From: Escherichia virus TH15
Direction: 5' to 3' (one strand)
Sequence record: MT446392.1
Length of the DNA: 64,000 nt
Shown: piece by piece, positions 11,362-58,694 of the stretch
How the letters are laid out: each line of letters begins with the position of its first letter
Numbering within the stretch: position 1 is the stretch's first letter
Translations under genes and position numbers: made by a program
The notes under the pieces: model-generated
What the model was told of the DNA's origin: nothing
Databases searched by the model: none
What the model saw: only the letters and a program-made list of their open reading frames with translations

Positions 11362-11390
11362 TTTACATCTCCAAACGATAGGGTTATAAT
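11361..11390 (+). promoter_or_regulatory. T4-type early promoter
   Basis: -35 GTTTACA, 17-nt spacer, -10 TATAAT. Confidence 0.65.
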
Positions 11391-11416
11391 GACCCTATCA
11401 ACTACGGAGAACAAAC

Positions 11417-11833
11417 ATGACTCGCATTAATTTAACCCTGGTATCTGAACTTGCTGACCAACACCTTATGGCTGAATACCGCGAGCTTCCTCGCGTGTTT
11501 GGTGCTGTTCGTAAGCATGTGCAAAATGGTAAAAAGGTGTCTGACTTTAAAATCCCATCATCTTTTCTTTTAGGAACTGGTCATGTCACCTTCTTTTATG
11601 ATAAGCTTTTGTTCCTTAAAAACCGTCATCAAGAACTTATTGCTGAATGTTTAAAGCGAGGGTTTAATATAAAAGATATTTCTACCCAAGATTTAAATGA
11701 TATTCCTGATGAATGGAAGAATGATTATCAACCATCAATCTGGTCAATTGAAATCAGTCAATCCAGACTGAATGAGAAAATTTCTCAAAAGCCTACCTGG
11801 TACAAATACTATGGGAAAGCTGTGTACGCTTAA
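11417..11833 (+). CDS. denV: pyrimidine dimer DNA glycosylase (endonuclease V)
   Basis: [34 protein letters not shown] matches T4 DenV. Confidence 0.95.
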
Positions 11834-14313: not shown

Positions 14314-14342
14314 TGTACAAGCAGGTTGAAATGAGTTATGAT
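14314..14342 (+). promoter_or_regulatory. T4-type early promoter
   Basis: -35 GTGTACA, 16-nt spacer, -10 TATGAT. Confidence 0.5.
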
Positions 14343-14369
14343 TATCCCATCAAACAAAAGGAGATAATC

Positions 14370-14828
14370 ATGACTACTATCGATTCAAGTGTTTACATTC
14401 GCCGCAATAAACTTCGTCGTATTTTTGAAACGGAGTTCCTCAAAATTAATAATGCTATCAACAAGGCTTGTAAAGAAGCAGGCCTTGAAGCATTCTTCAT
14501 TAAGTACAGTCCACACCTGTTGGACCGTGCAATCCAACGTGAAATTGACGAACAATATGTTTTTGACTTGTTTGGAAAAATCACACCACATGTAAAAGAA
14601 ATTGTTGAATTCCTGGAGATGAAACCACTCCCGGAAGTTGAAGCACAAATTGACCCGAATGTGAACTACCGTCCACTTCGTCTGGAAATCACAGACAAGA
14701 ACCTATGGTTAGGAATGACAGTTAACCCAGCTCTTCCTGGGAAGTCTCCAACCATGTGTTGTCGTATGGCGTTTGTTAACTCTAATCGTCTGGAAGGAAA
14801 AATTAGCACAAAAGTGATTTATATCTAA
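14370..14828 (+). CDS. regB: RegB endoribonuclease
   Basis: MTTIDSSVYIRRNKLRRIFETEF...HLLDRAIQREIDE matches T4 RegB; ATG 14370 after AAGGAG. Confidence 0.85.
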   Translation: MTTIDSSVYIRRNKLRRIFETEFLKINNAINKACKEAGLEAFFIKYSPHLLDRAIQREIDEQYVFDLFGKITPHVKEIVEFLEMKPLPEVEAQIDPNVNYRPLRLEITDKNLWLGMTVNPALPGKSPTMCCRMAFVNSNRLEGKISTKVIYI

Positions 14829-18283: not shown

Positions 18284-18487
18284 ATGAGAATTAAAAATAT
18301 CAAGATTGATGCAGTTAATACTGGTGATGAGGTTGTTATCTATCTTAATGATTATGCAATCTTTATGGACAGTGCCACTGATGAAGAAGTGGTTGAACTC
18401 TTACAGAAAGCTCCATTTGAACTGTGTGAAGAAGATGCTACTCATCTTTCATCAGCAATTTTCTCATTATCATATGTGGTGGAATAA
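18284..18487 (+). CDS. hypothetical protein
   Basis: 67-aa ORF after CTGAGGAG leader. Confidence 0.5.
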   Translation: MRIKNIKIDAVNTGDEVVIYLNDYAIFMDSATDEEVVELLQKAPFELCEEDATHLSSAIFSLSYVVE

Positions 18488-51105: not shown

Positions 51106-51465
51106 ATGAGTTATTATAATTTTCTGAATTTTGAACTGGTGAGCAATAATGATGGTAATGCCCGTTATGAATTTCGTGAGCCTCGGTTTAATCAGGCGAT
51201 TGGTTATATTATCGTTAAAGATGATGTTATCATAAAGGCTCGCTCATTTATGGTAATGAGTGGACCTTATGAAGATACTCGTGGCTATCCATTTGATAAA
51301 AAGAATGTACGCGATTGTGCAGCATGGATAACCGGAAACCCTGAAATTGGGGTCATGATATCTACTGAAGCAAATGACATTCTGGAAGGGGCTTGGGTTA
51401 AAGCTCAAGAACTGCCTACTGATATTGATGACCAGATTTTTAATGCCTTCATGAAGCGAGGTTAA
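51106..51465 (+). CDS. hypothetical protein, C-terminal DDQIFNAFMKRG tail
   Basis: 119 aa; last 12 codons repeat those of previous gene. Confidence 0.55.
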   Translation: MSYYNFLNFELVSNNDGNARYEFREPRFNQAIGYIIVKDDVIIKARSFMVMSGPYEDTRGYPFDKKNVRDCAAWITGNPEIGVMISTEANDILEGAWVKAQELPTDIDDQIFNAFMKRG

Positions 51466-54384: not shown

Positions 54385-54410
54385 AAAGGGAACCTTCGGG
54401 TTCCCTTTTT
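54385..54410 (+). terminator. rho-independent terminator
   Basis: Stem AAAGGGAACC/GGTTCCCTTT loop TTCG then T-run. Confidence 0.65.
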
Positions 54411-54433
54411 GCTTTTAATAGAGATGGTATAAT
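54408..54433 (+). promoter_or_regulatory. possible middle-type promoter
   Basis: TTGCTTTTA box-like, ~10-nt spacer, -10 TATAAT. Confidence 0.35.
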
Positions 54434-55195: not shown

Positions 55196-55341
55196 CACAA
55201 GAAGAAGCTGAACGCCAGGCAAAAGAAGCACTGGATTTGCTTTTGAAAATTGGCAGTAAAATGATGGAAGAAAACGAAAAGTACATCAAGGAAAATAAAG
55301 TTCCTGATGGTCCATTAGTCGGTAAGAGGAAAACATTATGA
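55192..55341 (+). CDS. hypothetical small protein (49 aa)
   Basis: ATGA overlaps both neighbours. Confidence 0.35.
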
Positions 55342-55826
55342 AAGTATACGAATTAGAATTTTACGTCCGTGATTCGGCAGGCCAAACACGACCTTACGAT
55401 GCAACAGCCTGTCTTATCTTTGCATATAATGGCATGGATTCGGTTACTGAGTTGGAAACAAAATTAATGAACCTGACGATGCCAGAAAATGTCACGATGA
55501 AGGTATTTCATAACAAAAACGTTAATGTGGCTGAAGGGTGTCCGTTTACTGTTTCCGAAGCTCTACACATCAAAGGCTATCGCCACCCGGACCCATATGC
55601 AGAAGGTACTGCGGATATTTTCTATAAAGATAGAGATAAAATGGCCACTGAACGACTTAAAGGTCGCACATATCTGATTTCCACTACCGACGACCTTGCT
55701 GAAGTTGAACGTCAGATTTGGAAGCACTTTGATATTGGTCTACGCTTTACTTTAACAGAAGAAGCTATTCAAGATACTAAAATGCGTGCTCGTATGTATG
55801 GTTACGGTCCGATTGGTGGTTACTAA
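55338..55826 (+). CDS. hypothetical protein (mrh-position)
   Basis: 162 aa; position between soc and the ART genes corresponds to T4 mrh; not sequence-verified. Confidence 0.55.
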
Positions 55827-56002
55827 TGGATTTATTTGAACTTTTTGAAGAGCCTAAAGCGCATACGGAAGCCCGTGTGGACCTAGTTGACGAACTTGAT
55901 GCGATTATACAGAAGCATGGTTTTAGTCTCCCATTGGAAGTTCTACGCGACCTGGCCTCATATTACGACGACCCACCTCCGTGGGCACCATGGGGGAAAT
56001 GA
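55826..56002 (+). CDS. hypothetical small acidic protein (58 aa)
   Basis: TAATG junction; below track cutoff. Confidence 0.3.
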   Translation: MDLFELFEEPKAHTEARVDLVDELDAIIQKHGFSLPLEVLRDLASYYDDPPPWAPWGK

Positions 56003-56235
56003 TGAACTGGTTAACAAATATTCCCACATCGGCGCAGGATATCGACCGTAAACACGCTCATAAGGAAATCGAGCAACAAAAAATTAATCGTGTACAAAGG
56101 CTTAAGATTGAATCCGAGACAATTAAAGCCAAACGACCAACAGAATCGAAAAGTTCTTACTCATCATGCCAATCCCCAATTGGCATGGCCGCAGACATCG
56201 CTATCTTCGGCGTCCCACTTGGAGTATTTAAGTAG
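55999..56235 (+). CDS. hypothetical protein
   Basis: ATG 55999; track start 55981 is GTG. Confidence 0.4.
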   Translation: MMNWLTNIPTSAQDIDRKHAHKEIEQQKINRVQRLKIESETIKAKRPTESKSSYSSCQSPIGMAADIAIFGVPLGVFK

Positions 56236-56264
56236 TTTACTTACTCCCCTCCTAATGACATAAT
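56235..56264 (+). promoter_or_regulatory. T4-type early promoter
   Basis: -35 GTTTACT, 17-nt spacer, -10 CATAAT. Confidence 0.6.
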
Positions 56265-56291
56265 GGCCTTTCTTACAACAGAGAGGCCATT

Positions 56292-56852
56292 ATGAACATC
56301 ATCAAATCTGATACCGAACCCAACCAGTTAAAATTTAGTGAAATGGAGATAGCTTCATTGTTTGAATGTCGCACATCAAAGGTTGACAAAACCTTGCATT
56401 CAAACGTCAACTCAATCATCAAGTCAAGGTTATCTGTACCTGATACAGTCTTGTATCGCGGGGTTACCCAGCAAGAGATTGATTTGTTAGATGAAGCAAA
56501 AGAATCAATGCAACCTTTTGAATTTGGAAGAATAACTTCCTTTACAGAAGACTACGGTATTGCCAGGGATTTTGCTGCAATGGAATATGTGACAAGGACT
56601 ATCGTCAGATTGAATCAGACCAAAGCTTTTTGTTACCATGATGCGATGCGCAAAATCGCGCTTGATGTTCCACTGGAATTCTTCAATACTGCTTCTGGTT
56701 CCAAACAGGCAGCTACATTAAGGCGTGAAGAATACATGGACATGATTGATTCTGAGCTTGAATGGTTTGTTCCAGTTGACCAGAAATACGTGATAGTTGA
56801 TGCTGGATTTGTTGGTGATTATTATGTTCTTGACTGTGTACAAGAACAATAA
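56292..56852 (+). CDS. ADP-ribosyltransferase-like protein (ModB position)
   Basis: R-S-E-type motifs: LYRGV, TSFTED, SELEW; T4 synteny soc-mrh-modB-modA-srd. Confidence 0.6.
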   Translation: MNIIKSDTEPNQLKFSEMEIASLFECRTSKVDKTLHSNVNSIIKSRLSVPDTVLYRGVTQQEIDLLDEAKESMQPFEFGRITSFTEDYGIARDFAAMEYVTRTIVRLNQTKAFCYHDAMRKIALDVPLEFFNTASGSKQAATLRREEYMDMIDSELEWFVPVDQKYVIVDAGFVGDYYVLDCVQEQ

Positions 56853-56865
56853 GACACGTTAAGAT
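56836..56865 (+). promoter_or_regulatory. possible early promoter
   Basis: -35 GTGTACA inside upstream coding end, weak -10 TAAGAT. Confidence 0.35.
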
Positions 56866-56896
56866 GTTCCTATCAACTACTGATGAGGATAATAAA

Positions 56897-57511
56897 ATGC
56901 TGTACACTGATGACGTTTTGAATGGAATTATTGACACTGCCGCTTCTAGTGAGTCTTTTCGTGACCAATGTCAAGCAGAGATTGATGCTCTTTATACAGA
57001 TAATGAGCAATCAGTACTCTGGCAGTGTATGGAAAATAAACCCGACCTGATTCAAGAAGACTTAACCAGGATTATCCGCAACAATCTGACTAAAGAAATT
57101 CCTACAAAATTGTATCGTGGGATTTCGCAGAAAACCATGGAATACCTGGAATCAGAAGGGTGTGTTGGCGGGATTATCAACTTTGACAGAGTGATGAGTT
57201 TTTCCAGGGACTGGCAGGTTGCAAGAAATTTCGCATCATATAGCTTCTATGGTACAAGGAATATTTTCTGCATAAACAATGCACCTTATGCGTATAACTA
57301 TCAGGAAGCAATCTTTAAAATGATTTGCGGCGCTCCTCCTGAAGAGTTCAATGGTGCATATCCAGAAGCAACCAGGAAGTCAAACTTACACCTGGTTAAT
57401 GATGAGGATGAGTTTATGTTTCCCGCTGGGACTACGCTTCGCGTAGATTTAATTGAGACACACCCATTGAATAACCTGTATACTGTTTGGCATTTAACTG
57501 TTTTGAACTAA
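56897..57511 (+). CDS. ADP-ribosyltransferase-like protein (ModA position)
   Basis: LYRGI, MSFSRD, EDEF motifs; ATG 56897 after TGATGAGGATAATAAA. Confidence 0.6.
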   Translation: MLYTDDVLNGIIDTAASSESFRDQCQAEIDALYTDNEQSVLWQCMENKPDLIQEDLTRIIRNNLTKEIPTKLYRGISQKTMEYLESEGCVGGIINFDRVMSFSRDWQVARNFASYSFYGTRNIFCINNAPYAYNYQEAIFKMICGAPPEEFNGAYPEATRKSNLHLVNDEDEFMFPAGTTLRVDLIETHPLNNLYTVWHLTVLN

Positions 57512-57570
57512 CTAAAGACCTTAGAACCATTATACACAGTAAAAATAAAAGCGTTAAAGGTGAAAAAGTA

Positions 57571-57599
57571 GTGTACATAAAAGATGAATAGTGTATAAT
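57571..57599 (+). promoter_or_regulatory. T4-type early promoter
   Basis: -35 GTGTACA, 16-nt spacer, -10 TATAAT. Confidence 0.6.
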
Positions 57600-57646
57600 G
57601 ATTCCGTACTGAGTTATTCAATCGTCCGTAAGATGAGAAAAATATC

Positions 57647-58393
57647 ATGACTTTATCAAAAACCAAAACGCTGAAAGTTAAACGTCGTCTGGAACACACT
57701 CAAGCTTCTGCTAAACGTCGCGGTAAGGACTTTAACCTGGATTTCAATTACCTGGTTAACATTCTTGACCAAAAAGTTTGTGCTTATTCTGGTGAAGCAT
57801 TTAATAACTCTATTGAAGGTGAGAAGTTATCATTAGAGCGTTTTAACAATGATATTGGTTATATCAAAGGTAATGTTATTCCTGTTAAAAAGAAATACAA
57901 TACCATGCGTTCTGATTGGTCCCTGGGTGAGCTTAAACAACGTCGTGATGATGTTGCTGTAAAAATTGCTCGCCCATCTGCCAAGAAGATTGAAAAGTTA
58001 AATCTGACTTCAGAGAAATGGGAACAGATTAAAAAGTCATACAACCATATAAAGAACATCCAGCACAAACGTGAGAATCGCGTTAAGCATTATGCCCAAA
58101 TGAGTAAATCAGAGCAGTCAAAAGAAAACCAATTAAAAATGGTTGCTCTGAAGGCTCGCATTGATGGTTCCCGTATTGCGGAAGGTCATGAGCTTACTAA
58201 ATTGAACGTCTTACTCAAAGGTAATGACTGGAAAGTTACCAAGAAATTAACTGATGCTGAAACGCTTTTTGATTGCTATGATAAAATCATTCAAGGTCTT
58301 GAGCGTTTTGAGAAGATTGGTTTTATTGGTAAATTAAAACTGAAACGTGGTCTACCTTTGAACGCGTCAATTTTTAAACTGATTAGAGGTTAA
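57647..58393 (+). CDS. hypothetical basic protein (srd-position)
   Basis: 248 aa between ART genes and dda, where T4 srd lies; not sequence-verified. Confidence 0.5.
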   Translation: MTLSKTKTLKVKRRLEHTQASAKRRGKDFNLDFNYLVNILDQKVCAYSGEAFNNSIEGEKLSLERFNNDIGYIKGNVIPVKKKYNTMRSDWSLGELKQRRDDVAVKIARPSAKKIEKLNLTSEKWEQIKKSYNHIKNIQHKRENRVKHYAQMSKSEQSKENQLKMVALKARIDGSRIAEGHELTKLNVLLKGNDWKVTKKLTDAETLFDCYDKIIQGLERFEKIGFIGKLKLKRGLPLNASIFKLIRG

Positions 58394-58394
58394 T

Positions 58395-58694
58395 GTGATG
58401 TACTACGCTTATGTATTGGTTTACAAAGATAAGGATGGATTTGAACATCCATTGGAGTATGATGGGAAGGTTACCTTGTATACCACAAAGTTCGCCGCGG
58501 ATTATGAACTTGCCAACTATTCATACACCACAAAAAGATATTTAAGTATGGGACGTATTGAAACTTTGTACATTCCAAGAAAATGGTGGTTTGATAAGCG
58601 GGAAACCAAAACTGTGTTCCCTACAGAAGACCGTGCAAGAGAACTGAAATTGGTTTTAGATACTGTTAATGTTAAGCGAGTAAAATTGGCATGA
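58395..58694 (+). CDS. hypothetical protein
   Basis: 99-aa ORF. Confidence 0.5.
   Translation: MMYYAYVLVYKDKDGFEHPLEYDGKVTLYTTKFAADYELANYSYTTKRYLSMGRIETLYIPRKWWFDKRETKTVFPTEDRARELKLVLDTVNVKRVKLA

Follow-up and report, generated by a model that had tools for sequence, protein, structure and literature searches.

The window analysed here, a stretch of 64,000 nucleotides (nt) of Escherichia virus TH15 (MT446392.1), contains two adjacent genes of the T4 ModA/ModB family of ADP-ribosyltransferases (ARTs), gene 1 at the modB position and gene 2 at the modA position. The start of gene 1 is enclosed in a hairpin of 15 bp. The 3' arm of this hairpin holds the Shine-Dalgarno (SD) sequence and the AUG of gene 1, and the DNA encoding the 5' arm holds the -10 hexamer of a match to the T4-type early promoter. 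It is fairly probable that the two ARTs are both early enzymes and that the translation of gene 1 is gated, through this hairpin-embedded early promoter, by the promoter from which a transcript originates. Gating by promoter of origin, rather than by a hairpin that is simply on or off, is most likely because the -10 of the gene 1 promoter is contained in the 5' arm.

In the proposed mechanism gene 1 would have its own sigma-70-type early promoter embedded in the DNA that encodes the 5' arm, the 3' arm being formed by SD and AUG. Transcripts starting at about 56271 would lack the 5' arm, leaving the ribosome-binding site (RBS) open so that gene 1 is translated. Transcripts initiated upstream, for example at a middle-type promoter after the soc terminator, would hold both arms and fold, and gene 1 would be silent. 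Synthesis of the gene 1 enzyme would then be confined to the brief period of early promoter activity while the region is still being transcribed. Gene 2 would be expressed from an early promoter of its own, outside the control of the hairpin; in T4, by contrast, modA overlaps modB by ATGA and is coupled to it in this way. The features of the control region and the two genes, in amino acids (aa) for the products, are the following.

56235..56241, + strand: -35 element GTTTACT of a T4-type early promoter (promoter scan, TTTACT-17-CATAAT with TG)
56256..56264, + strand: extended -10, TGa CATAAT (promoter scan); the hexamer 56259-56264 makes up the first six bases of the 5' arm
56259..56273, + strand: hairpin 5' arm CAUAAUGGCCUUUCU (RNA fold)
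56271, + strand: predicted transcription start site (TSS), the 7th base after the -10 (promoter geometry)
56280..56294, + strand: hairpin 3' arm AGAGAGGCCAUUAUG, holding the SD GAGAGG (56281-56286) and the AUG (56292-56294)
56292..56852, + strand: ART gene 1 ('modB' by position), 186 aa, with R56, S83 and E155-x-E157
56897..57511, + strand: ART gene 2 ('modA'), 204 aa from the ATG at 56897, with R74, S101 and E170-x-E172

Hairpin and early promoter at the start of gene 1

The first-pass annotation had pointed to an 8-bp perfect inverted repeat (AATGGCCT at 56262..56269 and AGGCCATT at 56284..56291) that covers the SD and abuts the ATG. The repeat is exact and the SD is covered, but the 8 bp are only the core of a 15-bp stem in which the whole AUG is paired as well. 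The stem joins 56259-56273 to 56280-56294 across a 6-nt loop, UACAAC. RNA folding, proposed at that stage as a check, gave a stable hairpin with a minimum free energy of -23.7 kcal/mol, compared with -7.75 +/- 2.49 kcal/mol in 200 dinucleotide shuffles (z -6.4), none of which was as good. No other local fold on the + strand of the 64-kb window is as stable: -22.9 kcal/mol was reached by only 3 of 21,319 sliding 45-nt segments, all three overlapping it.

The -10 hexamer at 56259-56264 pairs with AUUAUG of the 3' arm. The T4-type early consensus has GTTTAC at -36..-31 (PMC1524935). CATAAT is a common -10 variant among the other early-promoter matches of the window, and the 27 nt from the end of the -10 to the ATG equal the distance found at other short-leader early promoters there. 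The late motif TATAAATA is not present in the arm, and the promoter has the early sigma-70 form of -35, TGn and -10. The position of the -10 places the predicted +1 at 56271, and a transcript from this base would keep only 3 nt of the 5' arm and have a leader of about 21 nt. For T4, the literature gives Pe12.8 as one of the early promoters that precede modA/modB (PMC6024815); the T4 GenBank records have no promoter features annotated for the modB region.

The computed cost of opening positions -15..+5 is 2.4 kcal/mol in the own-promoter transcript and 22.6 kcal/mol in an RNA starting 150 nt upstream. The same computation for 8 other lineages gave 2-5 against 13-19 kcal/mol.

These costs bear on a different explanation, a constitutive attenuator, according to which all modB transcripts hold the whole hairpin and keep a toxic enzyme very low at all times, with occasional opening by ribosomes, helicases or a phage factor. 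The hairpin is indeed very stable and ModB is toxic, over-expressed T4 ModB being lethal to cells. The explanation could also draw on a predicted +1 that is a pyrimidine, on the imperfect -10 (CATAAT) and on a TSS that comes from the consensus. However, practically no protein would be expected at an opening cost of 22.6 kcal/mol, whereas T4 ModB is produced and has a bearing on burst size (PMC10468400). A T4-type -35/TGn/-10 is moreover found in every lineage at a fixed distance and with its -10 in the 5' arm, and would have no reason to persist if unused. Translational coupling is unlikely to open the stem, as the open reading frame (ORF) upstream of gene 1 stops at 56235, 24 nt before it. 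A constitutive attenuator is thus rather unlikely.

Gating by promoter of origin needs a second source of RNA. Three further features are relevant to this source and to gene 2.

54385-54408, + strand: soc terminator, AAAGGGAACC-TTCG-GGTTCCCTTT followed by a T-run, a strong intrinsic terminator
54409..54433, + strand: promoter-like site, TGCTTTT, 11 nt, TATAAT, resembling a MotA-box middle promoter (sequence read)
56837..56865, + strand: early-promoter-like site of gene 2, GTGTACA-17-TAAGAT, partly within the 3' end of gene 1 and followed by the leader AUCAACUACUGAUGAGGA

The middle-promoter consensus is (a/t)3TGCTTtA-N11-13-TataAT (PMC1524935). The site at 54409..54433 looks like a middle promoter for mrh.2 and the genes downstream, and would be the likely source of RNA crossing the genes from mrh.2 to ORF023c into modB. 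The terminator scan found no comparably strong terminator-like site between 54433 and 56292. Read-through into modB is plausible because a MotA-like site follows the soc terminator and no strong terminator precedes modB.

Gene 2 would escape the hairpin because of its own early promoter and its leader, which is weakly structured in the window. The leader AUCAACUACUGAUGAGGA recurs at other early genes of the window. Early-promoter-like sites of their own precede gene 2 also in Mosigvirus, Dhakavirus and L035. No such site is found in T4, where modA overlaps the modB stop. An alternative in-frame ATG at 56864 would give gene 2 a product of 215 aa; the ATG at 56897 is the likelier start because it has a GAGGA SD 7 nt upstream and agrees with the VR7 annotation.

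The SD of gene 1 differs between lineages. In T4 (L002, 2400-2404) and most other lineages it is GGAG(G), the RegB cleavage motif, while the window and its close relatives have GAGAGG, without GGAG. The modB mRNA of the window may therefore escape inactivation by RegB at the SD.

Conservation of the layout among Tevenvirinae

Lineages were compared at the start of the ART gene that comes first, or alone, at the syntenic position: Gaprivervirus, Tequatrovirus (T4 and T4-like contigs), Mosigvirus, Dhakavirus, Gelderlandvirus S16, Winklervirus LC53, Marfavirus EI, Jiaodavirus and two metagenomic lineages. The layout GTTTAC(A/T)-17-TGnTAxxxT is common to at least 10 lineages, with a stem sequence that differs in each. 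In all lineages compared the -10 pairs with the bases around the AUG (xxAUG), and the SD has its partner in the CU-rich stretch at +1. The stem arms are CAUAAUGGCCUUUCU/AGAGAGGCCAUUAUG in the window, AUGAUAGCUUCU/GGAGGCUAUCAU in T4, UAUAAUUGACCUC/GAGGUCAAUUAUG in L035 and GUGUUAGUAUCUCUU/GGAGAUACUAACAUG in EI.

Covariation is seen in the alignment of the stems. Counted from the AUG in the pair table, positions -1 and -4 to -7 of the stem have GC, AU, UA and CG as alternatives. In the MAFFT alignment 6 of the 13 stem pairs had changes on both sides, and 90.6% of the cells were paired, compared with 81.9% in shuffles (0/500) and 37-50% with slid partners; LC53, EI and KP185 stand in a shifted register on this alignment, which lowers the pairing percentages. 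A second MAFFT alignment misplaced the 3' arms of Dhakavirus, so the pair counts were taken from the first. Cognate 5' and 3' halves fold at a mean of -18.3 kcal/mol and chimeras between phages at -10.2 kcal/mol (0/20,000 permutations as good). Single-base differences among the phages of the VR7 group are transitions that preserve a wobble pair. The hairpin is thus real, strand-specific and conserved with compensatory changes, and fits translational control.

The same comparisons were used to weigh three other origins of the hairpin. The first is that the palindrome acts in the DNA, as an operator for a dimeric DNA-binding protein or as a cruciform regulating the modB promoter, with an incidental RNA fold. 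The repeat overlaps the -10 and +1 of the promoter, which is the classical position of an operator. The stems, however, include G.U pairs, whose counterparts on the opposite strand would be mismatches of A and C. Of 14 sequences, 12 fold more stably as sense RNA than as antisense, the mean difference in favour of the sense strand being 4.65 kcal/mol. These two results argue for an RNA structure. The change of stem sequence from genus to genus with the pairing kept is also the signature of an RNA structure and not of a protein site, and the 3' arm is always exactly SD plus AUG. A function as DNA palindrome is very improbable.

The second is that the pairing is a by-product of sequence constraints without selected function, in which a -10, a CU-rich initial region, a purine-rich SD and an AT-rich spacer pair by chance. 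Sequences of the TATAAT/ATTATA type are inherently close to self-complementary, and several other early promoters of the window do have a weak pairing between AUG and -10 (-4 to -9 kcal/mol). A scan of all T4-type early-promoter matches in the window gave about 25 promoter/leader matches, among which strong AUG/-10 pairing was found only at modB (-22.9 kcal/mol) and regB (-16.6 kcal/mol), so that just these two of the comparable cassettes reach the range of -17 to -23 kcal/mol. The central stem positions -4 to -7 covary although they are free of promoter and SD consensus, and the loss of 8 kcal/mol on average in chimeric arms and the wobble-preserving transitions of the VR7 group are likewise not expected of chance pairing. 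A by-product is therefore clearly unlikely.

The third is a processing or termination element, that is, a site for RNase III or another nuclease, or a stop or pause for the upstream mrh-modA.2 operon. The hairpin is intergenic and ends a run of small ORFs. On neither strand is the stem followed by a U-tract, and the terminator scan did not call the hairpin, which rules out an intrinsic terminator. The 15 bp are short for RNase III, and a search of Rfam with the hairpin matched no known RNA family. Nor would an element of this kind account for the constant make-up of the two arms, with SD plus AUG in the 3' arm and the -10 in the 5' arm, and it is hardly to be expected here.

Several points weigh against gating by promoter of origin. 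The +1 and the upstream promoter meant to supply the read-through RNA are both predicted from a match to a consensus; the former is a pyrimidine, and the -10 has a C at -12 and is weaker than TATAAT. Rho-dependent termination is possible between the site at 54409 and modB. The pairing of a TATAAT-like -10 with the AT-rich xxAUG is partly favoured by composition alone, Jiaodavirus has a weak stem of -7 to -15 kcal/mol that is interrupted by an internal loop, and the register is shifted in the three lineages LC53, EI and KP185. That the element serves to limit a toxic enzyme in time is an inference of ours. Deletion of modA in T4 leaves early shut-off unchanged (PMC2988021), and because of this a feedback loop of ModA on early promoters is unsupported as the reason for the design.

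The second strong element of the scan, at regB, has the following position.

14314-14375, + strand: regB element, with ATG at 14370, a product of 152 aa (PHROG 1323, E 4e-72) and the early promoter GTGTACA-17-TATGAT

The -10 of regB and the bases downstream of it (14334-14348) pair with GGAGAUAAUCAUG at -16.6 kcal/mol. In the phages T6, MX01 and Shark_ER15 the SD of regB has its pairing partner in the spacer that separates the -35 from the -10, so that own-promoter regB transcripts would likewise lack the anti-SD. No such pairing was found at regB of F48 and Phi1. The regB gene of T4 was located by tblastn. The production of RegB is described as tightly regulated, with a promoter that falls silent 2-3 min into infection. 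The similar element at regB suggests a rule rather than a single case. Extended to the Tevenvirinae as a whole, this would be a 'promoter-embedded anti-RBS' grammar for dangerous early enzymes (modB, regB), with the promoter in the silencing strand, translation ending at early shut-off and compensatory evolution across at least eight genera, which would be undescribed for early genes. Such a general grammar is a tentative idea and is considerably less probable than the gating of gene 1 itself.

The two ADP-ribosyltransferases and their locus

Both genes are supported as ARTs of the T4 ModA/ModB family, predicted enzymes of the R-S-E clade, by sequence comparison and by structure models. The first-pass annotation described two adjacent paralogs with ART-type motifs in the correct order, and its gene and motif coordinates were all found correct on re-examination. 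The proteins share 30% identity (BLASTP, E 6e-17), and LYRGV, TSFTED and SELEW are present in this order in gene 1, as are LYRGI, MSFSRD and EDEF in gene 2. PHROG 832, 'RNA polymerase ADP-ribosylase', was matched with E 1.8e-28 by gene 1 and E 6.3e-39 by gene 2. The BLASTP E values of gene 1 and gene 2 are 2e-23 and 7e-26 to T4 ModB, and 7e-12 and 1e-20 to T4 ModA. Alignment with T4 ModA and ModB, which had been named as a check, showed that R, S and ExE are shared at 27-36% identity. Database homologs with 95% and 62% identity carry PF26816 Mod_ADP_RT; a Pfam scan of the two proteins, done with a Pfam copy that did not include PF26816, gave only a sub-threshold DRAT match.

The alignment and the AlphaFold2 models were based on 17 database proteins obtained by a profile search with 4 sequences. 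In the 19 sequences, of which 17 are these homologs, no exception occurs at the Arg of LYRG or at the Ser of SF(T/S), and both Glu of E-x-E are nearly invariant. R56 of gene 1 aligns with R73 of T4 ModB, which is catalytically essential, its mutation abolishing both ADP-ribosylation and RNAylation (PMC10468400).

An absent ART fold had been named as the result that would speak against the assignment; the fold was found in both AlphaFold2 models, with a predicted local distance difference test (pLDDT) score of 87.3 for gene 1 and 91.5 for gene 2. In the gene 1 model R56 lies in strand 54-57, S83 (SFT) in strand 82-85, and E155-L-E157 starts strand 157-160. In the gene 2 model R74 lies in strand 71-75, S101 (SFS) in strand 100-103, and E170-D-E172 at strand 172-175. 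In both, R, S and ExE fall on strands 1, 2 and 5, the order expected for the R-S-E clade. Foldseek against the PDB gave 87 and 101 chains at E<=1e-3, and the top-listed chains were all ARTs: HopU1, C3bot, iota-toxin Ia, CDTa, Certhrax and the Tre1-type toxin 6drh, at E of about 1e-6, probability 1.00 and template modelling (TM) scores of 0.5-0.58. A sequence search of the PDB with both proteins found no relatives, only noise at E>0.1, and it appears that no structure of ModA or ModB has been solved so far. The R-S-E toxins (C3 exoenzymes, iota Ia/CDTa/VIP2, HopU1, Certhrax and 6drh) share the fold and the placement of the catalytic residues with the phage proteins but only 10-15% sequence identity. 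The phage proteins differ from them in a family-specific N-terminal helical region and are without translocation or immunity partners.

Across the whole of 55300-58400 the window shares 94% identity with the Escherichia phages UPEC01, VR7, VR20/25/26 and SP18, which belong to the Tevenvirinae, genus Gaprivervirus. The VR7 record has modB and modA at exactly the positions of gene 1 and gene 2. The pair is thus already known, being annotated in VR7, SP18, VR20/25/26 and others, and the gene call adds nothing new. The order in the window is 61-56-soc-mrh.2-mrh.1-srh-modA.4-modA.3-modA.2-ORF023c-[ART1]-[ART2]-srd-dda.1-dda-dexA, which matches T4, and the pair sits syntenically between modA.2 and srd as in the T4 Mod locus. 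The earlier placement between soc and the srd-position gene holds as to order, yet 8 small ORFs separate the pair from soc.

The relationship to the T4 proteins is less simple than the position. A neighbour-joining (NJ) tree with bootstrap was made of 15 Mod-family copies. Gene 1 fell outside the clade that comprises T4 ModA, T4 ModB and the other syntenic copies, all but that of Jiaodavirus KP185, with 100% bootstrap, and its identity to every other Mod-family copy is 23-31%. Gene 2 forms a cluster with its second-position counterparts in Dhakavirus and Mosigvirus (100% bootstrap) and joins T4 ModA without support; its BLAST scores are 88 bits to T4 ModB and 74 to T4 ModA. Because gene 1 is a divergent outlier, 'modB' is a positional label from which targets cannot be inferred. 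This divergence behind a conserved promoter and hairpin suggests either a gene replacement under a retained control region or very fast evolution.

Compared with T4 ModB and ModA, the likeness is in the genomic position (after the mrh/modA.2 cluster and before srd), the size, R/S/E-x-E, the predicted fold and the early promoter, and T4 modB carries a homologous promoter and hairpin. Gene 1, by contrast, does not group with T4 ModB or with the first-position genes of Mosigvirus and Dhakavirus, and the targets S1, EF-Tu, trigger factor and RNAylation cannot be assumed for it. Gene 2 differs in its own promoter-like site, which T4 modA, overlapping the modB stop by ATGA, does not have.

Further Mod-family ARTs are found outside the locus. 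Some Tequatroviruses (Escherichia phage UFV-AREG1, L019) have an extra copy, 'modB_2', in the nrdC region next to a nucleotidyltransferase, and another non-syntenic copy is present in the 261-kb Klebsiella phage AM_K6 (L026). The RBS hairpin is absent at both of these non-syntenic copies, UFV-AREG1 modB_2 and AM_K6.

Other elements of the window and comparison with known systems

A repeated early cassette, GT(G/T)TACA-17-TAxxxT followed by (C)CCAUCAACUACUGAUGAGGA(A)AACAAAAUG, is found at 56837-56896 (gene 2) and in the leaders before the ATGs at 18284, 30059, 50369 and 60995. It has a small CAUCA/UGAUG stem beside the SD and is reminiscent of mobile cassettes of the promoter-early stem-loop (PeSL) type. 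At 11362-11412 (+ strand), GTTTACA-17-TATAAT has its -10 in the loop of a 10-bp hairpin, GATAGGGTTATAATGACCCTATC (-18.9 kcal/mol per 45-nt segment), upstream of an ORF starting at 11417, with the SD outside the stem. A hairpin of -18.0 kcal/mol at 51229-51273 (+ strand) is located inside the ORF 51106-51465; its 3' arm GAGUGGACCUUAUGA consists of an SD-like sequence and an ATG, and it could mark a sequestered internal or alternative start.

ModB has drawn attention because it links NAD-capped RNAs to ribosomal proteins, and the toxicity of ModA and ModB makes both hard to clone. If the gating of gene 1 is true, it gives a testable account of how a phage confines a ModB-type enzyme to the first minutes of infection, and it carries the 'alternative 5' end' control, classical in T4, over from late to early genes. 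The length of the leader would decide expression, which would provide a handle for cloning or engineering mod genes. The modB control element is well supported by the comparative evidence and bears on an enzyme under current study; mechanistically it would not surprise a T4 specialist.

The PeSL cassettes of T4-like phages are composites of a stem-loop and an early promoter in early regions (PMC4122927). In these cassettes the stem-loop serves as a terminator in front of the promoter and is discussed as a substrate of recombination. In the modB element, by contrast, the stem encloses the promoter, and its second arm is formed by the RBS that follows.

The nearest known systems are the T4 genes e, soc, 49 and I-TevI, where RBS hairpins are relieved by a promoter within or next to the 5' arm, giving a translatable mRNA (PMC3014915). 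The reviews and papers searched list only these four for such control and do not mention modB, and older T4 literature may describe the modB hairpin. In the four genes the SD and/or the AUG is in a helix of the long transcripts, and the modB hairpin likewise forms a stable helix. They use late (gp55) promoters, by which expression is delayed to late infection, whereas the internal promoter of modB is of the early sigma-70 type and would confine expression to the first minutes. A second difference is that at modB the -10 hexamer is itself the anti-start-codon. By sequence and by analogy, the modB element would therefore work like the e, soc, 49 and I-TevI class, as a variant in the class of its promoter.

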